DNA of 30,342 bases from contig JBFMCE010000050.1 of the NCBI GenBank assembly GCA_040754655.1, positions 1-30,342 of the forward strand, given 5' to 3'. The number at the start of each line of letters is the position of its first letter. The first letter of the stretch is position 1. The position numbers and the translations under genes were made by a program. Positions 2,118-26,512 of the stretch are shown here, piece after piece. The stretch is from Bdellovibrionota bacterium (GTDB lineage: Bacteria; Bdellovibrionota; UBA1018; UBA923). The notes under the pieces are model-generated. The model was not told the DNA's origin and made no database searches. It was given only the letters and a program-made list of their open reading frames with translations.

Positions 2118-4313
2118 GTGAAACGACTTCCTTTGATCCTCTTTTTTATCTTCATCGGCATTCCCCTGCTCGCTCATAGTGGAGACAGCCCCATTTCTGC
2201 GGGAGGCAAATGTTCTGAATACCTGCTTTCTCCCCGCGACCGGCAAGACGTAGAACCTATTTATCGTCTCGGGTATGGCCAAGAAATGCGCAGGCGTTTG
2301 ACAGAAGCGACCCGTCGCACGGAAGAACGGCTCGGCCCCATCTATCGCAAAGAGATCTATGAGGATCTCAAAAACCTCTTTACCGAACCTCCTGCCCCTA
2401 AGTCGCCTCAAAATGGGTATGAATACAATGGCGTCCACTATGAACTCATCGAGGGGAATGCGCTTCCGAAACTCTCGATGCGACACATAGCTACCGGAGC
2501 GACAAAAAGCGTAGAACTTTCGTCGGTAGAGCCCATCGTAAATCGACCCGATCAATACACTTATCAAATCCTCTCTGTTGATGGAACGTTATCGAATCTT
2601 ATTTACGCAGTTTACGAAAAAAATGGATCTAGTGATGTAAATATTTATGCTTTAGATCTCAATACCGGCAAGAGCCTTCCTATCTATCGCTGCAGTTACT
2701 GCCTTTACAACCTCAGATACTTGGGACACAAAGTAGGTGCCTGGTTGGGCAATAACAACGAATTCTGGATTTCTGGCGACTACTCTCGAACCAAGAACGT
2801 AACCCTCGTAAAAGCGAAATTCAACTCTTCGACCGAAGTGACGATTGAAGAATCGCCAATCGTAAAAGAAGTCTCGCTGTATGGAGACAACACCTCATTT
2901 TCGAATCTAGACGGAGGCATTCTGACTCCAGACTCACGCTTTTTGACGCTTGAGTCACCAAGCCGAGAATACCGTTACAATAAGATCATTTTCACCGAGA
3001 CCGGAACTGAGTTGTACTCAGGATACGAAGGAATTCCTGCCGGAACCAAAGTTGACTTTGCCGTTTACGTTAGCGAAGGAAAGTTCTTAAGGATACTCAG
3101 CCGTGATAGAAAACACTTCTCTATTGAAGAACTCACTTGCAACTCTACCGGATGCAAACGCCGCCAGATTGCCTCTGGTCCCGAAATTCAATTTCTAAAC
3201 GAATTTACGCTAGAAAGTTTCAGCTATAACCTGAAAGCAACCCACGAGAAGATTTACGCTCTCTTGTATAGAGAGCTTCAACCAGAGCTGGTCATTTTTG
3301 ATCTTTCTTCAAAAAGAACCTCTCGCGTCTTCCTTCCCGAAATAAAAAGCGACGCCGGCTTTACAACGGTTGATCCTGCTTCGCCCACGCTAGCGTTCAA
3401 TGGGAAAAATGCGCTCATGGAAAACCTTCAAGTCACTCTTGACCACAAGACACTTGAAATCCTTGAAGTTAAGAACTTGGAGTCGAGGCCATTCAAAGAC
3501 TATGCGATGGAAGTGATGTACTCAAAGTCGCAAGATGGCACTGCCGTTCCGATCACAGTTCTTAAACCAAAAGGCGTCGTGGTTACCCCATCAACGCCGT
3601 TGATGGCCTATGTTTACAGTGAATACGCGACCCCAGGAATTCCTTCCTGGATGGGAAGAGAACATGTCGAGCCCCTCTTAAGACGAGGTCATGTCATCGC
3701 GTTCGCCCATGCCAGAGGCAGCGGCGACTTTGGAACCCCGTGGTACGAAGCGGGATCTCACAAGAACAAAGCGCGGGGCGTCGAGGATTTCGAGAGCGTT
3801 TTAAGAAAGCTGCACGAGTCAGGCATTTCTAGCCCTGATTTCACGGCGATCAAGGGCTTTAGCGCTGGAGGTACAATGATCAGCGTTACACTTGCAAAGA
3901 CCCCTGAGCTTTTCAAAGTTGCCTTTCTTGAGTGGCCTATCACCGACGCTTTGAACTTCGTCAGAGAAACCAAATCTTTTCTTGCGGGGCCTGAGTCATT
4001 GCGGCCCATCGGAAATCCTGACGAGTCTCTTGAAATGAAAAAGATCATCTTTAAAAGATCAGGGTTGCACCTTCTTCAGCCGCCGAAACGCAAAAACATC
4101 GTTTGGTTGACGACCTCTGCCGATGATTTGCAGGTTCCGCCTTCATTTCCTCTAGGCTATGAAACAAAAGCAACACGACTCGGCTATGAAGCTCACCTGT
4201 ACTCTTCGAGCTCGGGCGGTCACCTGGGCTATGAAACACCTGAAAACGGATGGCGGGCTTTGGCATTTGAATATTCATTGCTTGAACACGCCTTCAAGAA
4301 GGAATCAGAATAG
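2118..4313 (+). CDS. Exported S9 (prolyl oligopeptidase family) serine peptidase
   Basis: Signal peptide; beta-rich N-half; SQDGTAVP, HARGSGDFGTPWY, nucleophile GFSAGG, ADDLQV (Asp), GGHLG (His). Confidence 0.88.
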   Translation: MKRLPLILFFIFIGIPLLAHSGDSPISAGGKCSEYLLSPRDRQDVEPIYRLGYGQEMRRRLTEATRRTEERLGPIYRKEIYEDLKNLFTEPPAPKSPQNGYEYNGVHYELIEGNALPKLSMRHIATGATKSVELSSVEPIVNRPDQYTYQILSVDGTLSNLIYAVYEKNGSSDVNIYALDLNTGKSLPIYRCSYCLYNLRYLGHKVGAWLGNNNEFWISGDYSRTKNVTLVKAKFNSSTEVTIEESPIVKEVSLYGDNTSFSNLDGGILTPDSRFLTLESPSREYRYNKIIFTETGTELYSGYEGIPAGTKVDFAVYVSEGKFLRILSRDRKHFSIEELTCNSTGCKRRQIASGPEIQFLNEFTLESFSYNLKATHEKIYALLYRELQPELVIFDLSSKRTSRVFLPEIKSDAGFTTVDPASPTLAFNGKNALMENLQVTLDHKTLEILEVKNLESRPFKDYAMEVMYSKSQDGTAVPITVLKPKGVVVTPSTPLMAYVYSEYATPGIPSWMGREHVEPLLRRGHVIAFAHARGSGDFGTPWYEAGSHKNKARGVEDFESVLRKLHESGISSPDFTAIKGFSAGGTMISVTLAKTPELFKVAFLEWPITDALNFVRETKSFLAGPESLRPIGNPDESLEMKKIIFKRSGLHLLQPPKRKNIVWLTTSADDLQVPPSFPLGYETKATRLGYEAHLYSSSSGGHLGYETPENGWRALAFEYSLLEHAFKKESE

Positions 4314-5363: not shown

Positions 5364-6500
5364 TCACGGTCCATGAGTCATGCTTTCAATTCTCATTTCA
5401 AAGGCATGCTTTTCGATCGCGCTTCCATCCACCGGAATTGCCCACAATTCCGCATTCCCGCACGCGACATAGGAAGCAAAGACCACATCCCCAATCCGAT
5501 GCACCTTGCTAAACGTGTAGCCTTGGCACTGAGCGGGCGTGCTCTCACAAAGAATCTGCCGGTCTTCTACTGCGATACAGCTCTTGTTTTCGGCAGGATA
5601 CCAAGTGAGCGCAGTCGTCGAGTCTTCAAAAGACCCAAACGAAACATCGATGACTATGCCCGGCAGATCACGCAATTCATTGGCCTGAGCTGAAACCAAC
5701 GAATAGCGAGCCTCTCTCGCTTTAAGGTCTTTTGTCTGAGAAAGATCGCCTGATCCGATCACGAGCACCTGATCTTTTTCAGATTTCGCGGCAATAGGGT
5801 TGGGAACATCGATGGGCATCGTGAACTCGAGTGCAAGACTGCGGATATCAATGATCGCAAGGCCTGACTGGGGTTCTGGGGCCCAGACCCTGCCTCTTGC
5901 CAAACGCTGCGCTACCACTGCCATGCGCCCTCCGCTAAGCCACAAGATCTGAGAGAGCTCAGCAGACGAGTCTGACGGATCTTTGAGCGTGCCCAGATCG
6001 ATACCACCCACACGCTGAGACAGATCAGCCGAAAAGACATCAACGGTATTTGACTCAAAACTGCTCACCCAAACCCTGCCAAGGCTATCACGAGTTGCGT
6101 ACTGAGGGTTTGAACCCTCAGGAAGCTCAATGCGCTTTTCAATCTGGCCATCTTGCCCCTTAAGCCTGCTCAAAGAATCTTTCGTCTGACGGGTGAGCAT
6201 GAAAATGCCGTCGTTTCCATCAGTCAAGAGCCTCACGTCATTTCCGGTGACAAGAATCTCTTTTGACTTTGAATCTGACTTGAGATCAAGGCGAAAAAGT
6301 TTTCCGCCATTTTGGTAATTGGTAGTTGAGAGCCAAAGCCCATTTGCCTGGTTCCTTGTTTTTACCCGTATGTTCTCACTGAACTGCACGGTTGCGCTGC
6401 CAAGCTTCTGAGGTTTTCCCCCACAACTTGTGAAGCTCAAAACGCTAACAACAACCACGTTTGAAATCAAAATGCGCAAAATACGCTGACTGTTTTTCAT
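5364..6500 (-). CDS. Beta-propeller (YncE/BtuG-like) lipoprotein, probable cobalamin-uptake accessory
   Basis: Lipobox FTSC; repeated beta-blade pattern (GSNPQ, GRVWVSS, GLAIID); 4-bp overlap with the upstream receptor gene under a B12 riboswitch. Confidence 0.7.
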   Translation of the reverse strand: MKNSQRILRILISNVVVVSVLSFTSCGGKPQKLGSATVQFSENIRVKTRNQANGLWLSTTNYQNGGKLFRLDLKSDSKSKEILVTGNDVRLLTDGNDGIFMLTRQTKDSLSRLKGQDGQIEKRIELPEGSNPQYATRDSLGRVWVSSFESNTVDVFSADLSQRVGGIDLGTLKDPSDSSAELSQILWLSGGRMAVVAQRLARGRVWAPEPQSGLAIIDIRSLALEFTMPIDVPNPIAAKSEKDQVLVIGSGDLSQTKDLKAREARYSLVSAQANELRDLPGIVIDVSFGSFEDSTTALTWYPAENKSCIAVEDRQILCESTPAQCQGYTFSKVHRIGDVVFASYVACGNAELWAIPVDGSAIEKHAFEMRIESMTHGP

Positions 6501-8224
6501 AGAACAACCTCCAACTGCAAACGCACTTCGCGCTGCATGAATTCTGGCTCGATAATATTCGTTCCGGCAGTCCCCTCAAATTGCAACGGCTGGGTCGCAT
6601 CAGGATAAAGCACAAGGTTTTTTGCCACCAATCTTAGGTCCCACGTTTTCTTTTGATAGCCTACGAAGGCCCCCGCTCGATGAAGTGCAGGAAGCCTTAG
6701 CAACCCCACCGAATCTCGCGCCTCTTCACTTCGGTAATGGTAAGTGGTTCCAAAAAAAACACGGCCCAAGGCGTATTCCGCCTCAGACTTGGCACTTAGG
6801 GCGGGCCTGCCCGGGACGTCGTGACCTCGCTGCCAATTGATCTGAGAATCATTCAAAGCAATTTGATATGTGACAGCGCCAAGCCATTTCATTTTTTCAA
6901 AGTAAGCTTCAGTTTTCAGCTCAGCACCTCTTGCCCAAACCCCTTCAATGGGAAGCGTTCTTGCCTCTACCGGCGAAGTGCCCACTTGCACTGGCGAGTT
7001 TTGACTTTCTTCCGAAAAGACGTGCGCTGAAATAAAAACAGATTCTGTTGACCACCACGGCCCGGTCTCTAGGCGAATCCCGGTTTCACTCGGCAAATCG
7101 AGAGACTCTTTTAATAGGGCGCCGTCGCCAAACCGCTGAATAGCTGTCGGTGTGATAGCATACCTGCGCGCTCTTGCAGCAACCCCGATTGGAATTCTTT
7201 TAGTAGAAGAAAGCTCGGCACCCACGTCCCAAATAAGGTCTGTCTTCTTTGTTTTAAGCGCTGTCTTGTCTTCGAAAACCTCTGAGAGCGCGTGTGCAGA
7301 GAGCTCTAGCCACCGGTTTTTCAAGTTTTCAAGGCGTGCCCTGCCTTTAAGAGAAGAGCGCGAAAACGACAGGTTTTGTCCGCCAAAATACGTCCTCTCT
7401 AAAGACTCATGGTACCCATCAAGGGTTGTAGAGACTTTGCCGCCCCACTGGGCGCGCAGCTGCGCGCCTCCCTTTATGCCATCTGTTGAGCTTGAAGTTT
7501 GATTCAAAGCCCTTGCTTCATACTCTGATTCTTGGATCTGACCATAAGGCAAAACCTCAAACTGCCCGACCGTCAGTTTTGATGAACCAAGCCACTGAGA
7601 CTGTTGTTTTTCACCAAGCATGCGTTGGCTTGCTCGCACATTCGAAAGGCGCCCATCTCTTTCGAGGATCGCGGTCCATTCTTTCTGATAGGCCCTGAGC
7701 TTGACATGGTGCTGTTCGTCTTTGTTTTGAAACGAACGAACCGAATCGTCGCGCTTGTCTTGAAAGGTTCCGCCATTATCCCAATAACGAATATCTCTGC
7801 GATCTCTTGCAAGCCCCGCTTCAATTTCAACATCAGTCTTTGAGAGTTTACCTAAGAGGCGCGCCTTGAGCCTTTGGTCTTGCGAAAGATCTATTTTGAA
7901 TTGTGTAACCCAGTTTCTTTTTTCTAACTCAGGCTTAAGTCTCCAAACGTTGTTACGCCGATGGATAGAAAGATCTTCGGTGCCTTCCAAGGTTTTAAGC
8001 TCAATGCCAAGCTCATTGACCGGGGCATCGAGCACCTTAGCCCCGACTCCGGCTTCTGCTTGAATGGTCTCTTGTTTTCGAGGTTGCGTTTGAGCTGGCC
8101 TCTCAGCCTCAATCACGACTTGAGGCGCAACATAGGCTTCAGTCTGCTGTGTTTCTTGCTGAGCATGTGCCAGCTCACCTGATCCAAGGCACCCCAGAAA
8201 GAGCGCCAAAACAAAATGCTTCAT
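6497..8224 (-). CDS. TonB-dependent receptor-like outer-membrane beta-barrel, probable cobalamin transporter
   Basis: Signal peptide, TonB-box-like VVIEAER, amphipathic beta strands, LVAKNL and terminal REVRLQLEVVL strand; lies downstream of a cobalamin riboswitch. Confidence 0.75.
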   Translation of the reverse strand: MKHFVLALFLGCLGSGELAHAQQETQQTEAYVAPQVVIEAERPAQTQPRKQETIQAEAGVGAKVLDAPVNELGIELKTLEGTEDLSIHRRNNVWRLKPELEKRNWVTQFKIDLSQDQRLKARLLGKLSKTDVEIEAGLARDRRDIRYWDNGGTFQDKRDDSVRSFQNKDEQHHVKLRAYQKEWTAILERDGRLSNVRASQRMLGEKQQSQWLGSSKLTVGQFEVLPYGQIQESEYEARALNQTSSSTDGIKGGAQLRAQWGGKVSTTLDGYHESLERTYFGGQNLSFSRSSLKGRARLENLKNRWLELSAHALSEVFEDKTALKTKKTDLIWDVGAELSSTKRIPIGVAARARRYAITPTAIQRFGDGALLKESLDLPSETGIRLETGPWWSTESVFISAHVFSEESQNSPVQVGTSPVEARTLPIEGVWARGAELKTEAYFEKMKWLGAVTYQIALNDSQINWQRGHDVPGRPALSAKSEAEYALGRVFFGTTYHYRSEEARDSVGLLRLPALHRAGAFVGYQKKTWDLRLVAKNLVLYPDATQPLQFEGTAGTNIIEPEFMQREVRLQLEVVL

Positions 8225-8637: not shown

Positions 8638-11280
8638 ATGAACTCTAGTTTTTTCAGTCATAAAAAAGCAGTCTTCGCGCGCATTTGTTCACAGCAGCGG
8701 CTGAAGTTGCGATCACGGGCTAGGTGGTTCACCCACCTCTTATTGAGCCTCTTATTCAGCTTAACGCTAAACATTGATGCACTTAGCAACTCTCGCTCTA
8801 GTCATCTTTGCGGCACAGTCGCTGGCAGAGTACTGGGCTCATTTGAAGAATACCTAAACGCAACCGAAGTTCTGAGCGATTTCAACCAAGAACTCACTGA
8901 CCTTCAACAAGCACACCTCCGTGAAGTCATTGCCCCCATGCTTGGATCGAAGCTTCTCATCAAACATACCGATGGAAGACCACGCGCTTGCGCCGTTGGT
9001 TCTTCTTGTGTCTTGTTTGGCAAGCGCCTGCCAGAAGAAAATGACTTGGCCATTGAATGGAGCGAAACTTCAACTACACCTGAGATCACAGACACTCCCT
9101 CGACCACGACCTTGCATCTGCCTGCGCGGATGAGCGTTGATGAGCTTAGAGCTCACGGTGAAGCATTCATTCAGAATTGGACTATGGGTCATGCACTGCA
9201 CCCATTCATTACAATAAAGAGTGAAAAAGACTTGCTCGGACCAACAGACAAGTTCAAGCTTCGAAAGGTGCAAGCCGCTGCCATTGCGGTAGGCAACAAG
9301 GCCTTTGATGAGGGAAAGAATAGCTTTCTCTATGTCGCGCCTACGGGCACTGGTAAAACTGAGGTCCTCACCAGCAATCTTAGCCGTGAGATGGAAAAAA
9401 CTCAGAATGATTCTAAGTTTCACATCATGGTTGCCCACCAAAATGAGCTTGTCAGTCAATTCAAAGACGATATCAAAAAAGCCCACAAAGGTGGTTTAAA
9501 GGTCTTAGAAGAATTTGACATTCAAACCCTTATTGACCCCAATTTTTACGCCGAAACCTCGCCCAAAAAAGCAAAACTGGTCGCCATTACAATACAAGCT
9601 CTTGTGAAGGCGCTTGAAAAAGCAACACCAGAAGAAATCAGCATGCTTCGATCACGGCTCGGCGTATTGGTCTTTGATGAGGCTCATCACCTGGGTGCTA
9701 AAACTTGGCTTCAGACGGTTAAAACTCTTTTGCATGAGAATCCAAATGCAAAGCTTCTAGGCGCCACGGCCACTCCATTGCATCAGGACGCAAGGATTCA
9801 AGCTCTATTTAACGACTTATTCAATGGCCAAAGTTTCTGGGCATATCTCGATAGTGAGGCACAAAAGGAAGGCATCGCACGAGACACCACTGATGTGATC
9901 GAACAGCTCGATATCGCAATCGGCACTGGCAACCTTGCTCCACTAAAACACTTTTATTCGGTTGATCCCAATTCATTTACTCACGACAACACATCTGTGT
10001 TTGCACGAAAAGATCCCAATAATGACAAATCTGACTTCGAAATTAAACACACGCTTTTGGGTACCGTTGTTAAACGATTCTCGCCACTGATTGATCGCCA
10101 TCGTTCTGGTTTCGTCGCGGCAAATAATATTGTTGAAGCAGGCAGGCTGCAAGAAGCCTTCAGCAAAGCCATGCCGCACAAGAAGTTTGAGGTTTTTCAC
10201 GGAGACCTTACGGCTAAAGAACGTAAACGCATTCGAGACCGCATCGAACAAGGAGAGGACCTATTCTTAATCACGGTAAACCTTTTGGACGAGGGCGTGG
10301 ACTTTCCCAACATGTCTTTGTATATCGATCTCAATCACAGTCTTGGGGTTCGTCAGCTCTTGCAGCGCTGGGGACGAGTGGCAAGAGTAGCGCTTGGAAA
10401 AAAGGGCATTGAGATCGCCACACTCACCGACTGGCGCGATGCCAATCATATTCGAGACAAGATCTCTCTTTTAGAAAAGTTTGCAGTCAAACCCAACACT
10501 GAGAACCCTCACGGGGCCTTTCGAGGCAAATACACCTCGACTCAAGAGAGAAAAAACAATCTCGCAAACTCAAATTCAGAGCCGGCACTTGAAGGCCTTA
10601 CCCCTATAGACGATCACACCAAGCGTGAGCAGCTCTTAGTGCTCTTGCAAGACGCCAGAAATATCTTTGAGAAAGAAAACAAAGCATCGCCACTTGAGCG
10701 GGTGATCAAGAGGGTGGCAGAAGGGAAAGGTATTCCTTCTCAAAAAGAAGATCCTAGTGCATACCAATGGGCTTATCACTTACCAAACGATCCTAATGAG
10801 TGGCCCACGATGCCGGAAGAAGTAAAACAAGCACTCATACAATGGAAAGCGAATCGTAGAACTAATACTAAAACCGGTAAAAATGAAAAAGGCCCGTTAG
10901 AGCGAATAACGAGTTCTGTAAAGGATAAAAAAGGTATTCCCTCTCAGGAAGAAGATTCTGGTGCATACCGATGGGCTTATAATCTACCAGACGATCCTAA
11001 AAAATGGCCCACGATGCCGGAAGAAGTAAAACAAGCACTCATACAATGGAAAGCGAATATACGACCTAGAACTAAATATGAGAAAGGGCCACTAGAGCGG
11101 GTAACAGATTCCGTAAAAGCAGAAAAAGGCATTCCCTCTAAAACAGTGGATTCCGGCGCGTACAACTGGGCTTATCACTTACCAAACGATCCTAATGAGT
11201 GGCCCACGATGCCGGAAGAAGTAAAACAAGCACTCATAGAGTTCAAAGCAAATATCAAACGCAGAACACCCAAAGAGTAA
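8638..11280 (+). CDS. SF2 DEAH-box helicase (ResIII/SSL2-like) with N-terminal hydrophobic signal and three C-terminal repeats
   Basis: APTGTGKT, VFDEAHH, GATATP, LLDEGVDFP, QRWGRVAR. The frame is open from 8563; ATG at 8638 taken as the likely start, which is uncertain. Confidence 0.88.
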   Translation: MNSSFFSHKKAVFARICSQQRLKLRSRARWFTHLLLSLLFSLTLNIDALSNSRSSHLCGTVAGRVLGSFEEYLNATEVLSDFNQELTDLQQAHLREVIAPMLGSKLLIKHTDGRPRACAVGSSCVLFGKRLPEENDLAIEWSETSTTPEITDTPSTTTLHLPARMSVDELRAHGEAFIQNWTMGHALHPFITIKSEKDLLGPTDKFKLRKVQAAAIAVGNKAFDEGKNSFLYVAPTGTGKTEVLTSNLSREMEKTQNDSKFHIMVAHQNELVSQFKDDIKKAHKGGLKVLEEFDIQTLIDPNFYAETSPKKAKLVAITIQALVKALEKATPEEISMLRSRLGVLVFDEAHHLGAKTWLQTVKTLLHENPNAKLLGATATPLHQDARIQALFNDLFNGQSFWAYLDSEAQKEGIARDTTDVIEQLDIAIGTGNLAPLKHFYSVDPNSFTHDNTSVFARKDPNNDKSDFEIKHTLLGTVVKRFSPLIDRHRSGFVAANNIVEAGRLQEAFSKAMPHKKFEVFHGDLTAKERKRIRDRIEQGEDLFLITVNLLDEGVDFPNMSLYIDLNHSLGVRQLLQRWGRVARVALGKKGIEIATLTDWRDANHIRDKISLLEKFAVKPNTENPHGAFRGKYTSTQERKNNLANSNSEPALEGLTPIDDHTKREQLLVLLQDARNIFEKENKASPLERVIKRVAEGKGIPSQKEDPSAYQWAYHLPNDPNEWPTMPEEVKQALIQWKANRRTNTKTGKNEKGPLERITSSVKDKKGIPSQEEDSGAYRWAYNLPDDPKKWPTMPEEVKQALIQWKANIRPRTKYEKGPLERVTDSVKAEKGIPSKTVDSGAYNWAYHLPNDPNEWPTMPEEVKQALIEFKANIKRRTPKE
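10690..11253 (+). repeat. Three tandem intragenic repeats (204 and 195 bp period)
   Basis: 39-bp identical core TGGCCCACGATGCCGGAAGAAGTAAAACAAGCACTCATA at 10801, 11005 and 11200. Protein unit PLER....KGIPS...D..AY.WAY.LP.DP..WPTMPEEVKQALI..KAN. Confidence 0.97.
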
Positions 11281-22295: not shown

Positions 22296-24359
22296 ATGAG
22301 AATTTCAAAGCCATTTCCTCTTTTAAACGCCCTAGGCTTTTGCCTCATCCTTGCCTCTGGCCTTTATTCGGGCGAAACCTTGAGTGCCGACGCCGAGCTC
22401 GGGTCTCCTGGCTTGAAGTGCCAAAGCGCTTTACTCTCCCCCAAAGATCTTGAAGAGATGGCCCTCCGTATCTCTACCGAAAGCGATCAAAAAGATCTGC
22501 AGGCTTCTCGTTTGATGGTGCGAAGAAGCTGGCTTGAATCATTGCAAGCAGACCTTGATCCTGCGTTAGAGGGTCTATTAAAACGAAAGGTGATCTCTAG
22601 ATTTGCCCAGGCCGAAATTTACAACTCCTCTGACCCTCTTCCGCGTTGGAAGAACGAGACTGAAGCTGTCGAAGTCGAAGCCCGAAACTTCGCTGCACTT
22701 CTCATCCACCGCTTGCTTGCTGAAATAAAAGATCCCAAGACCGCTTCTGAAATTGAAATCGCCGGCAGACTTGCTCTCTTCAAAGTCAAATCAAAGACTG
22801 AGCTTGAGCATCTTTACGAGCTTCCTGTTGAAGCGTATGTGCAATTCTATGAATATCTTGTCCAAGGGATGCTTGTTTCAGACCCGCTTGTCGCCCAGAA
22901 TATTGAAAAACATTACACGTCGTGGCGGCGAAAACACCAGGTTCTTGTAGCGATGGGCCAATGGATCGGTGAATGGTTTACCAAGCGCCCTCTGCGACTG
23001 CATCCCCTCGATAAAAAAGAAGTCGTCATTCCTTCAGAAGAGGCGCCAAAGACTTCCATCCCTCTACCCGGAGATGAACTAAGTCTTACGCTTGCCCTTT
23101 CGCGGAATGAAACGCTATCGGTCAGCTGGCTAGCCCTTGGCACATTCACACCACAGCAGCGCCTCTTTCACCTCGCCATTCGAGCCTCACGCCTCAACTT
23201 AAACCAGTTAAATGAGCTTTTTCAGCGGTCTAACGCCAAAGACCTGCTGCCTTCTGAGCTTTTTCATGAGCTTCAGAAACGTCGAGAGGCCTTACAGCGC
23301 ATTAACGATGATTACACTCTCTATGATGAGCTGCGTGGTCGTCGGCTGCGAGACCGTTCTCAGCTGCAACCGATTGATGAATCTACGACAACTCTTGGGC
23401 AGTATTCTCAGGCTTTCCTTGAGAAAAACATAGACTTTATCGGCGACAGTGCCGTGCATAAAGCGCTCAGTGCGCATAATAGAAGAGGATCTGCCCGCTT
23501 TTTCTCGGCTGAAATAGTGGAAAAACTAAAAGAACGAGAGAAACTGTACAAAGAAACTGAAAGCACAAAGAGCCAGATCGAAGAGGCTAAAAAACAAAAA
23601 CCAAAGCATGAAGAAGAGCTCCGCAGTGTCAGTGCCTCTGTTGAAGCTAAGATTCATTACCTCGCCCATTTGAAAGATCGTCTTTCAAAACTTGAACTTT
23701 TTGCAGCTTCAATGGAAGCGAATTCACCCGTCAAAGATCCAATCCCATTGCTGGATGTGCATGAAGTTTTAGACGCCCTGCATACCTGGGAAAAATCAAC
23801 TGATTATTCGACACCGCTTCTTCGAATGAAAGCATTGATCGCATTCGAAGAAATCTTTAGCCCTTACGGCTCAAAGCTAGATGCCGGGGGTTTTGAACGG
23901 GCGATGGATGTTGCTTTTCGAAAAACCTCTTCCTTCATTAAGACTTCGACAGACCAAGGGGACCGGCAAGTGGTGGAGCTATTCCTGAACGTCTTTCGTC
24001 GCCATGCCCAACACATCGAAAAGACAGCAGCCACTGAAAAACAGTGGATCGCGACGTTTACCGAACACTTTGGCGTATTACTACCATCACGGAACATACA
24101 CGGCGTTTGGAGACCGATTTTAGAACAAGTTGGCGATCTTTCATGGACCACAAGACCTGCGTACGCCCGAGAAAGCGCACAAAAAGAAGTTCTGCGCGGT
24201 CAAAGAGAGCTCGAGGAAATCGAGAAAGAGGTCTCTGAAGCCAAAGAAAAACGCAAGGCCATGAGTGCAAAAATCAGCGAGCTCAAAGAAAAAATCATCG
24301 CTCTAGAAGGCAAAGAAGCAGAGCTCAGTGCGACAACGACGGTGCGTGAGGAGAAGTGA
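22296..24359 (+). CDS. Hypothetical exported alpha-helical/coiled-coil protein (paralogue 1)
   Basis: 687-aa ORF with N-terminal hydrophobic segment and two heptad-rich regions; shares motifs with the next ORF. Confidence 0.8.
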   Translation: MRISKPFPLLNALGFCLILASGLYSGETLSADAELGSPGLKCQSALLSPKDLEEMALRISTESDQKDLQASRLMVRRSWLESLQADLDPALEGLLKRKVISRFAQAEIYNSSDPLPRWKNETEAVEVEARNFAALLIHRLLAEIKDPKTASEIEIAGRLALFKVKSKTELEHLYELPVEAYVQFYEYLVQGMLVSDPLVAQNIEKHYTSWRRKHQVLVAMGQWIGEWFTKRPLRLHPLDKKEVVIPSEEAPKTSIPLPGDELSLTLALSRNETLSVSWLALGTFTPQQRLFHLAIRASRLNLNQLNELFQRSNAKDLLPSELFHELQKRREALQRINDDYTLYDELRGRRLRDRSQLQPIDESTTTLGQYSQAFLEKNIDFIGDSAVHKALSAHNRRGSARFFSAEIVEKLKEREKLYKETESTKSQIEEAKKQKPKHEEELRSVSASVEAKIHYLAHLKDRLSKLELFAASMEANSPVKDPIPLLDVHEVLDALHTWEKSTDYSTPLLRMKALIAFEEIFSPYGSKLDAGGFERAMDVAFRKTSSFIKTSTDQGDRQVVELFLNVFRRHAQHIEKTAATEKQWIATFTEHFGVLLPSRNIHGVWRPILEQVGDLSWTTRPAYARESAQKEVLRGQRELEEIEKEVSEAKEKRKAMSAKISELKEKIIALEGKEAELSATTTVREEK

Positions 24360-26512
24360 TGAGAGCGTATTGCAACGACCGCCGTATCACAGAAACAAGC
24401 CCTAAGAACAAAGGGCTTGCAACTAGAAGCCATCTCATAAGTATTTCTGTAGCGAGGGCGCACCAAAAGACACCTAACTTTCACCGTAAAAAGCAGTTCT
24501 TTCTTTTCTTTCTCTTGCTATGCATTTTAAGCCCACACAAGTCTCTTGCTACTCAGACCAAGGAATCCGAGCACTGCGAGGCTGCCCTGGTGAAGTTTGG
24601 TTCTTACCTCGATCAAAAAACGCTTGTCCAAGACCTTCTGAGCTCTGGAATTGCCAAGACTGAATTTGAGGCCGCCCAACTTGCCCGCGCATCAATAGCA
24701 GACCACCTGTACGAAGCAATGGCGCCAGAGCTGCACGAGATCATTGGCAATGGAGTCTTGCACGAGTTCCTGCAACGTTCTCTACATTTGAATAAACGTG
24801 GCCTGCTGACCAAACGCGTGAGAGATGCCGTTTACGGAGGTCTTCAGAAAGAAATTGAATTAGACAAACTCAGTAAGACTGAAAGCGGAGACACTGTGTT
24901 TTCGCTTCTTCAAGTGATTGGTGGAGGATCAATAGAAAAACCGGTTGCTCCTGAGAGCGCTGTGGCATTGCTCAAACTCAGAGACGAATATTCGTTAAGG
25001 CAACTGAGCGAGCTTCCCCTCGAAGAATATTTTAAACTTACGGACTGGCTTGAACATGTTTTGCACCTCCCGGACCACCCCTTTTTCATCGAAGCGGAAC
25101 AAAGACTTTCTCGTGGCAGGCGCTTCCTCGGCTGGCTAAAAAATGGCTATAAGATTCTCGTAAGAAGACCTGTAAAAAACGAAGCTCTTTCGATAGGCAT
25201 TGATTACACGCCTGAAAAAAACCTATGGGGCCTTGCAAGTTACAAGTTTGGCAGCGCCTATTTCGTAAAATTAGACGCTGTGATCCGAGACGCGAACCGT
25301 CTGCAAAACTCTTACTTTTTGGCCCGTTACGCTCAGTACCTTTCAAAGCAACAGCTAGACATGGTCTCCAAGTCTTTCCGATTCGATGAGATGCCCCCAA
25401 TCGTTGCCGAGCGCCTTAAGGAACAACGTGAGAGGCTTGAATCAGCGCTAAAAGATCTTGAGGTCAAAAACATGCTTCAATCGCACTTGCTCTCTGTGCC
25501 CAAAGAGCTCTTGACGGCACTTAGTGAGATTACCAACCACGAGCCCGGCAAGCTTTTAGATGAGCTTCTCAAAACCCCTGCCGCAGCAACGCTTAAGAGT
25601 GCACAAATGCTTCCTCTCAAGAAAGCGTTCTCAAGACGCACCGACCTGATCTCTAAAGAAGCCCTTGAGACTTTAGAGATGATGGCGAAACCAGAAGAAA
25701 CAAGGATTGAACTCAAACCAAGGCTCGAAGCAGTAAATAAAGAAATCAACAGGCTCGAACGTCGCCTTGGAAAAAGTGAAATCATTGAACTTGAAAGTGA
25801 CATAAAAGCGACTGACTCTGAGATTGCGGCTTTCAAAAAAATCGAAGAACAGCTTCAAGGCTTTGCTCGTGAACTGAGCACTTCCCCAGAATCTTCGAAA
25901 TCGCCATACGGCAAGATTAGCTATGGCCAACTGCTTGATGCCATTTATCGCTGGAACATGGAATTGAGAACCGGTCGCTATAAGGTCCCAGCTCAATACC
26001 AAGCAGCTCGAAAACTAAGAGAGCTCTTTAACCCTTACTCTTCATCTTTGCGACCGGAAGAATTCAAGACTGCTGTTGAAGTCTTGTTTCAACCCATAAA
26101 AGATTACTGGAGAGAATTCCCGACTGAAATAAAGATGGAGTTCATCTACACAGTCCGGCGTCACGCCCAAAACATTGCCGAACTCACTCAGGACTCCACC
26201 GATTCGGTCAAGAAAACGATCATACAAACATTCAGTCTTGACCTCGACCCTAGTACAGTGGGCGCCGATCACTATCCAATATATACCTATGAAATTCTTC
26301 CAAGTCTTTCCAGGTCGTGGCAACCCAGACCTCGCCCTACGCAAGAAGAGGTAGAAAGCGACATTCTAACGCTCCAACAGCTGATCAAGTCATTAGAGTC
26401 TAGACGCGACTTTGACGCGAAATTAATTAAAGAGCACCGCTCTGAACTTGAAAACTACCGAAAAGAAAAGGAATCGATCGAAAGCCAACTTAAAGAACTT
26501 GAGGGAAAATAA
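24356..26512 (+). CDS. Hypothetical exported alpha-helical/coiled-coil protein (paralogue 2)
   Basis: 718-aa ORF overlapping the upstream stop by 4 bp; hydrophobic FFLFFLLLCIL followed by SLA; start uncertain. Confidence 0.8.
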   Translation: MMRAYCNDRRITETSPKNKGLATRSHLISISVARAHQKTPNFHRKKQFFLFFLLLCILSPHKSLATQTKESEHCEAALVKFGSYLDQKTLVQDLLSSGIAKTEFEAAQLARASIADHLYEAMAPELHEIIGNGVLHEFLQRSLHLNKRGLLTKRVRDAVYGGLQKEIELDKLSKTESGDTVFSLLQVIGGGSIEKPVAPESAVALLKLRDEYSLRQLSELPLEEYFKLTDWLEHVLHLPDHPFFIEAEQRLSRGRRFLGWLKNGYKILVRRPVKNEALSIGIDYTPEKNLWGLASYKFGSAYFVKLDAVIRDANRLQNSYFLARYAQYLSKQQLDMVSKSFRFDEMPPIVAERLKEQRERLESALKDLEVKNMLQSHLLSVPKELLTALSEITNHEPGKLLDELLKTPAAATLKSAQMLPLKKAFSRRTDLISKEALETLEMMAKPEETRIELKPRLEAVNKEINRLERRLGKSEIIELESDIKATDSEIAAFKKIEEQLQGFARELSTSPESSKSPYGKISYGQLLDAIYRWNMELRTGRYKVPAQYQAARKLRELFNPYSSSLRPEEFKTAVEVLFQPIKDYWREFPTEIKMEFIYTVRRHAQNIAELTQDSTDSVKKTIIQTFSLDLDPSTVGADHYPIYTYEILPSLSRSWQPRPRPTQEEVESDILTLQQLIKSLESRRDFDAKLIKEHRSELENYRKEKESIESQLKELEGK

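Follow-up and report, generated by a model that had tools for sequence, protein, structure and literature searches.

A predicted Sec-exported SF2 helicase of uncultured Bdellovibrionota and a candidate cysteine-helix tag

The DNA analyzed here, referred to as the window, is 30,342 nucleotides long (positions 1 to 30,342 of the forward strand of contig JBFMCE010000050.1, assembly GCA_040754655.1) and comes from a Bdellovibrionota bacterium. It carries the gene for a superfamily 2 (SF2) helicase of 880 amino acids that, by its sequence, is an intact ResIII-like SF2 helicase and is very probably exported through Sec, as its N-terminus predicts. We lean towards reading it as a predator effector that would be exported by Sec, stay idle in the producer's own periplasm and be delivered to the cytoplasm of prey, with a cysteine (Cys) and the helix behind it acting as a putative sorting or tethering signal.

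The helicase gene and its predicted signal peptide

8638..11280 (+): whole helicase gene, 880 amino acids from ATG 8638; alternative start TTG 8707
8638..8781 (+): predicted Sec signal peptide, by heuristic only, with the cut predicted after Ala48
8638-8736 (+): basic n-region (residues 1-33 from ATG 8638)
8737-8769 (+): h-region LLLSLLFSLTL (residues 34-44), mean hydropathy 2.46
8770-8781 (+): c-region NIDA
8809..8859 (+): Cys58 and the following helix, candidate sorting or tethering tag; low model confidence

The frame holding the signal-like peptide quoted in the preliminary description of this DNA stays open from 8509 until its stop at 11280 and is in frame with the helicase, whose SF2 motifs are intact, as that description had said. 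Its gene span of 8638..10500 was right at the start but ended too early, missing the last 780 bases and the three repeats in them, and its reading of the N-terminus recognized the signal but overlooked the conserved Cys58 behind it. The cut site and all signals were called by our own heuristic, with SignalP not the basis, and this heuristic finds the sequence features of Sec and signal peptidase I processing: a basic n-region, an h-region, a cut site and no further transmembrane segment. The net charge is +3 before the h-region and 0 after it, and the residues at the predicted cut (I-D-A) place Ile at -3 and Ala at -1. Sec export follows from such a signal, and under the positive-inside rule a positive charge before the h-region puts the C-terminus outside.

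The length of the n-region depends on the start codon, being long (33 amino acids) from ATG 8638 and short (10 amino acids) from TTG 8707. Checking the start site, as had been proposed, gave ATG 8638, upstream of the hydrophobic stretch, the best score among five candidates with a start matrix trained on the genome. The first ATG past the h-region, at 8938, scores lower and would remove Cys58 and cut into a conserved helix. The first 60 codons have a low coding score, and low coding scores are probably usual in signal peptides. No match to a sigma-70 promoter was found upstream of the gene.

Cys58 lies ten residues past the predicted cut and 13 residues past the h-region, and is conserved in at least 90% of 20 aligned members, while the helix around it (residues 55-74) has a predicted local distance difference test score (pLDDT) below 50 in the AlphaFold model. 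A lipoprotein signal (signal peptidase II) was considered and rejected, the lipobox being absent and the Cys standing 13 residues past the h-region here and 7-37 in relatives; the linkers before the Cys in those relatives are polar or charged. A twin-arginine translocation (Tat) substrate was likewise rejected, since the window protein is without an RR pair before the h-region and such a pair is not conserved in the alignment.

Retention of the signal by homologues had been named beforehand as a check on the prediction, and the signal was retained. The alignment holds 19 relatives of the window protein, one of them cut at the N-terminus; all the other 18, which include three near-copies, have a hydrophobic core in the first 35 residues with a Cys shortly after it, in the Cys58 column in 17 and three residues off in one. 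Another 21 loci (L161-L181; L152-L160 were excluded as the window's gene or repeats of counted sequences) gave two cut by contig ends, one unclear, 18 with the signal and 17 with signal and Cys. Together, 36/37 relatives with a complete 5′ end carry the signal and 35/37 carry signal and Cys, at a family identity of about 25-40% and with the catalytic motifs conserved alongside, whereas all five outgroup helicases inspected (5/5) are without a signal. One of the loci (L180, G280:C68:10149-13709) has signal, Cys and repeats with only a degenerate half of RecA2, and a similar second gene adjoins it. In most relatives the sole start codon sits just before the signal, although gene callers picked a later start for one (P0007 vs L010). 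The h-regions of the family are about 11 residues long and are followed by small-residue sites, and positive charge precedes the h-region in 15 of the 19 aligned members that have one and follows it in 2.

A quick tree of 57 helicase cores places the 37 family rows together on the same side of a single branch (SH-aLRT 93). Where members found by protein and genome searches have names, most record titles are labelled Bdellovibrionota. A profile of 20 members (E 1e-25) found the family in 33/401 genomes of the window's phylum, patchily, with 11/34 genomes in one taxonomic family and 4/153 in the two largest. One match (G177:C5:26979-28601) lies inside an open frame of 2986 amino acids, far longer than other members.

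The remainder of the protein is laid out as follows:

8899..9222 (+): alpha/beta N-domain specific to the family, with G-H-x-L-H-P at its end; not assigned to any family or fold
9250..9780 (+): RecA1 domain (ResIII/DEAD)
Residues 208-212: Q-motif
9337-9360 (+): Walker A APTGTGKT (residues 234-241)
9676-9687 (+): DEAH (residues 347-350)
9766-9774 (+): motif III TAT (residues 377-379)
10048..10482 (+): RecA2 domain (Helicase_C)
10270-10302 (+): motif V (residues 545-555)
10363-10386 (+): motif VI QRWGRVAR (residues 576-583)
10690..10857 (+): C-terminal helical repeat 1 (about 56 amino acids), HA-like, candidate DNA binder
10894..11061 (+): C-terminal repeat 2
11089..11256 (+): C-terminal repeat 3

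Pfam matches over the cut-off were ResIII (E 1.7e-22), DEAD and Helicase_C, and the two RecA domains hold motifs Q, I, II, III, V and VI. AlphaFold modelled the whole protein with a mean pLDDT of 75.7 and a predicted template modelling score (pTM) of 0.67; confidence is low at the N-terminus, after which come a folded alpha/beta domain, the two RecA domains and the three helical repeats. Foldseek ranked a Dicer-type helicase first for this model, then SauUSI and RadD.

The N-domain (about residues 88-195) found 11 family matches and one repetitive false match among 1.84 billion representatives, and is thus confined to the helicase family within the searches run. Its separate model is confident (pLDDT 79.9), but Pfam, PDB-sequence and Atlas-feature searches gave no match that would name it and no clear fold match emerged: the best Z was 5.2, to zincins, and Vsr/DUF559-like nucleases reached Z 4.0-4.6, all in the common range, while a weak YgjP-like likeness (template modelling score 0.30-0.35) is a lead only. 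Since there is no clear fold match, and only three Gly/Leu and one His are invariant, with no acidic residue among them, we do not claim a nuclease here.

C-terminal tails differ in both length and kind from member to member; the 56-residue repeat occurs three times in the window protein and nine and four times in its two closest relatives, and one member (P0020) ends, by eye, in a short RelE-type-like segment with no Pfam match. The window protein's repeats do not match the HA family (PF03457). One relative (L169) passes the Pfam HA cut-off (32.6 bits vs 28.4), iterated profiles from its repeats extend to ten other members, and the window repeats are linked only weakly to these profiles (hhalign E 5e-4, probability 31%). 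In an Atlas feature search, HA clusters, mostly from giant viruses, were nearest to the repeats at 0.79-0.81, which is a lead only. The repeats are therefore likely, though putative, HA-like DNA binders.

Cysteine-helix starts across the genome

We called 616 soluble signal-peptide proteins, by heuristic, among the 3307 open reading frames of the window's genome, which is 90% complete. Of the 113 with a single Cys in the mature chain, 45 have it within the first 30 residues, where 12.4 would be expected. A tag rule of signal, polar linker, Cys and hydrophobic helix face (C-x-x-L/F-L/F) picks 53 signal-bearing proteins with the consensus C-E-x-L-L, about 4.5 times background; over 436 proteins it gave 33 N-terminal matches vs 5-10 in shifted windows. 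Glu, which is not part of the rule, directly follows the Cys in 21/53 (8.5% background, p 7e-10), and about 40 of the 53 are expected to be genuine. The tag Cys is the only Cys in 27/53, whereas untagged signal proteins are biased to even Cys numbers. The genome has two VKOR genes, and a search for DsbB found none. From the VKOR genes and the even-Cys bias we infer a disulfide-forming periplasm around the lone tag Cys.

A Pfam scan of 45 of the 53 tagged proteins named 10, of which 5 depend on partners found in a cytoplasm, namely a sigma-70 factor, a sigma-54 activator, a Fic enzyme, an HD nucleotidase and an S-adenosylmethionine (SAM) methyltransferase. The controls were untagged signal proteins drawn at random, of which 39 out of 40 were used. 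These gave 22/39 named, of envelope or secreted types (secretins, LptC, penicillin-binding protein, SNase, PLD, trypsin), with none needing ATP, SAM or polymerase and one a flavin oxidase. The contrast among named proteins (5/10 vs 0/22) has a Fisher p of 0.0013, or 0.006 if the flavin oxidase is counted. Taken from the sequences, this points to the Cys-helix start as the putative mark of a wider class of exported proteins that would act in a cytoplasm. NCBIfam matched 4/49 tagged proteins, in none of them with a model of the tag itself, and PHROGs gave no match for 34 unnamed ones.

Several of these cargoes can be described individually. The sigma-70 factor (L059, G000:C103:3567-4556, +) is FliA-like with regions 2 and 4, has its upstream ATG, hydrophobic core and CSYLL all in frame, and found no close homologue. 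In the sigma-54 activator (L049, G000:C42:17422-18891, +), with AAA+ and Fis helix-turn-helix domains, a signal and CTELL replace the regulatory domain, and the Walker motifs, GSFTGA loop and helix-turn-helix are present. The Fic protein (L039, G000:C43:8110-10842, -) has 893 amino acids, a signal with CTNLL and the Fic motif variant HPNIDGNGRTSR; the NCBIfam family it matches best, at a score far below cut-off, is one of effectors. Three SAM methyltransferases have signal and Cys (L057, L100 and L073, the first two looking like paralogues); besides the methyltransferase among the five cargoes above, first-pass lists supplied two with both. Outside the tag class, an untagged signal protein (L147, G000:C5:51417-52346) with a Gln_deamidase_2 domain is a possible effector.

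The window itself holds three tagged genes:

2118..4313 (+): S9 prolyl-oligopeptidase-family peptidase, signal and Cys-helix CSEYLL
22296..24359 (+): signal and single Cys-helix CQSALL, no named family
24350..26512 (+): signal and single Cys-helix CEAALV, no named family, start uncertain

The last two (22296-26512, +) are an overlapping tandem pair of large helical or coiled-coil proteins, each with a signal and a single tagged Cys.

In other genomes, small samples gave four tags in 200 kb of G005 (one of which looks false), two each in G060 and G165, one in G186, none in 104 kb of G180 or 200 kb of G361, and three doubtful ones in 400 kb of G171, of which one is a dihydrodipicolinate synthase. 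A small sample of 274 kb from other phyla had none.

Proposed delivery into prey and competing explanations

The periplasm has neither ATP nor a chromosome. In the route we propose, the helicase would be exported via Sec and, finding neither ATP nor DNA in the producer's periplasm, would do nothing there, so no immunity gene would be needed beside it. The Cys-helix would then be read, or tethered by a disulfide, as the label for a second step. The way out in that step would be either a machine built on a secretin (that of type II secretion, of a type IVa pilus or of a Tad pilus) or an opened predator-prey junction. We found four secretins in the genome (GspD, PilQ and two Tad-like) and, at its 90% completeness, no match to a type VI secretion sheath or VirB4, and because of this a secretin would be the simplest outer-membrane step. 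A search for the contractile-injection tube family PF06841 gave no match, and the control was equally blank. One Tad-like locus (G000:C121:458-6844; secretin, TadZ/TadA fusion, TadB) has an exported DUF6531/RHS protein directly behind it.

Entry into prey could happen in two ways. In typhoid toxin a single cysteine tethers the cargo to its carrier, and by analogy a carrier might hold the helicase through its Cys until the reducing prey cytoplasm frees it. It is also possible that cargo passes passively through a junction like that of Bdellovibrio exovorus, an epibiotic predator whose junction is proposed, in the part of that source available to us, to open access to the prey cytoplasm (PMC12428579). 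Inside the prey the repeats would hold on to DNA while prey ATP powers the motor, which would translocate on or strip the chromosome, halting replication or transcription or exposing DNA to nucleases. More tentatively, and with somewhat less than even confidence, we suggest an undescribed two-step, tag-labelled pathway by which uncultured Bdellovibrionota may put dozens of cytoplasmic enzymes into living prey; the cargoes would be a DNA helicase, a sigma factor, a sigma-54 activator, AMPylases, methyltransferases and nucleotidases, with which the predator would gain control of the prey's DNA and transcription machinery or stop it. Delivery to another cell had been one of two options offered in the preliminary description, and it is the one we retain, supported indirectly by the shared Cys tag on other cytoplasm-dependent cargoes.

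A number of points weigh against delivery into prey through the tag. The signal calls come from our heuristic and not from SignalP, and the predatory lifestyle of the source organism is inferred from its phylum alone. The Cys context of the window helicase, CGTVAG, fails the strict tag pattern, leaving it outside the 53, although seven of its relatives pass; one relative (L179) has a signal without the Cys, and another (L175) is unclear. About a quarter of the 53 are expected to be chance matches, one of the 53 is a transglycosylase, and peptidases (S9, C1B) and a GH15 glycoside hydrolase, which can do without a cytoplasm, are also among the tagged cargoes. Over all proteins scanned the difference in cargo is weak (5/45 vs 0/39, p 0.058), and the sorting of cargoes into classes followed the scan and was made with the cargoes in view. 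In the protein collection the sigma-70 factor is called from a downstream ATG, giving 259 amino acids without the signal. No tagged orthologue appeared among the best matches of that factor (0/29) or of the sigma-54 activator (0/22 scored, 7 not parsed), and both are therefore single cases. No carrier or translocon for the tag was identified, and the tag is sparse or absent in the small samples of two genomes from the largest families. Such sparseness may be the reason the tag is unreported for model predators, as far as small samples allow.

An unlikely alternative is that the helicase is exported but not injected, doing digestive-type work outside the producer on the DNA and ATP of lysed or permeabilised prey, with the Cys serving stability, dimerisation or surface attachment. 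The tagged peptidases and glycoside hydrolase would suit such a role, and in the portions available to us predators are described as secreting many hydrolases, with secretion largely unexplored (PMC12622784), and a helicase, Bd1370, is listed among the early prey-degradation genes (PMC2797640). However, a tagged sigma factor and sigma-54 activator are sensible only beside a working RNA polymerase. Bd1370, up-regulated early in predation, is annotated as an RNA helicase in the accessible text (PMC2797640, PMC3526173) and rises only 1.35-1.45-fold.

It is improbable that the signal is an uncleaved anchor holding the helicase to face the producer's cytoplasm, the other option of the preliminary description, or in the periplasm at a DNA entry site for uptake or defence. 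The core does resemble defence and restriction ATPases (SauUSI is the best solved match, and the helicase itself matches PbeA in PADLOC with E 8e-24), and the n-region from ATG 8638 is unusually long. An inward-facing anchor is nonetheless disfavoured because positive charge precedes the h-region, both here and in most aligned members, and there is no second transmembrane segment; the short h-regions followed by small-residue sites also speak against an anchor, as do the absence of a defence partner or conserved neighbour and a periplasm without ATP.

We give little credence to a eukaryotic target, such as a protist or its organelles, with the tag as a host-targeting signal: the giant-virus HA clusters nearest the repeats and the effector-family match of the tagged Fic protein, each limited as noted above, would agree with it, but the sigma-70 and sigma-54 activator cargoes point to bacterial RNA polymerase, and the Tad and type IVa pilus secretins in the genome are typical of bacterial predators. 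Finally, a mis-called start, which would leave the signal untranslated and the protein an ordinary cytoplasmic helicase with HA-like repeats, is highly improbable despite the later starts chosen by gene callers for P0007 and the tagged sigma factor and the low coding score of the first codons, given the in-frame signal (36/37) and signal with Cys (35/37) in diverged relatives, mostly behind a sole start codon, and the poor score of ATG 8938 with its loss of Cys58 and part of a conserved helix.

Neighbourhood, known systems and significance

Across 12 loci of the family, only three close relatives have gene neighbours in common, and neither a methylase or nuclease gene nor one of immunity-like type recurred. 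PADLOC gave no match on the helicase's five window neighbours, and Pfam, NCBIfam and PADLOC found no nuclease or methylase in the helicase or the scanned neighbours. A restriction-modification or defence cassette was rejected for want of partner genes and of synteny beyond the three close relatives, in line with the earlier view that this is not an ordinary restriction subunit. Neither does it fit a polymorphic toxin with an immunity gene, of the contact-dependent inhibition (CDI) or MafB type, as the next gene is convergent and the 12 loci share no downstream gene. We found neither a B subunit or delivery domain for the helicase nor a lipobox or an immunity gene.

Other parts of the window carry features of their own. 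Divergent from the helicase (5364-8224, -) lie an exported protein of 575 amino acids, outer-membrane-barrel-like by eye and without a Pfam or NCBIfam name, and after it a 378-amino-acid lipoprotein with a weak propeller match. A low-GC trio (100-1418, -) looks like a mobile remnant: one small open reading frame is toxin-like, an HTH_37 gene resembles an antitoxin, and the third member is an SLT transglycosylase whose N-terminal part includes 'GHER...HVRRN'.

The exported SF2 helicase fits no family tested. HA repeat (PF03457) helicases share its order of ResIII, Helicase_C and C-terminal three-helix repeats, and are, as far as is known, cytoplasmic or viral. RadD/XPB/UvrB-like SF2 translocases (PDB 6JDE, 6P4F, 6O8H) are alike in the sequence and fold of the motor core, but the window helicase scores far under their NCBIfam cut-offs, no zinc finger or repair-specific domains were found in it, and none of these translocases is known to be exported. 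Two-step toxins that depend on Sec include the AB toxins that use type II secretion, CdiA, Neisseria MafB and Myxococcus SitA. The likeness lies in Sec coming first, a second step at the outer membrane and an enzyme active only in the target cell; the window helicase differs in being a large ATP-driven motor, and the shared element here is just a Cys and one helix. The best solved match by sequence profile is the type IV restriction enzyme SauUSI (PDB 7CLG, E 6e-18), which was second by Foldseek. As far as its description was available (PMC7913695), SauUSI is likewise made of three parts, in which an N-domain precedes a ResIII-like SF2 motor and a C-terminal part serves recognition. It differs in its PLD nuclease, its SRA domain and its cytoplasmic location; the window helicase instead carries a signal peptide and helical repeats, and its unassigned N-domain lacks invariant acidic residues.

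In the available portions of the literature, the Tad/Kil machine of Myxococcus and the Tad of Bdellovibrio are pilus machines proposed to deliver effectors, which are hypothetical there and have no sorting signal named (PMC12075869, bioRxiv 10.64898/2026.07.08.737194); in the window's genome there are GspD, PilQ and two secretin loci that are Tad-like. The accessible text of seven sources (PMC12622784, PMC13689555, PMC12075869, PMC11656739, PMC11495043, bioRxiv 10.64898/2026.07.08.737194 and 10.1101/2023.11.21.568195) names no exported helicase or such tag. The literature searched, with most subscription papers and preprint supplements outside its scope, likewise held no description of an exported bacterial helicase or of the tag.

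How predatory bacteria get effectors into the prey cytoplasm is an open question; in two reviews, as far as available, predator secretion systems are inferred and effectors hypothetical (PMC12428579, PMC12075869). A conserved, predicted-exported helicase is a contradiction that calls for such a route. The candidate tag would offer a direct handle on it, through a reporter fusion, a one-residue mutation or a pull-down of its reader, and would list some 40 candidate effectors per genome, mostly of no known family. If the sigma factor is truly among the effectors, one bacterium would reprogram the transcription of another, as phages do.

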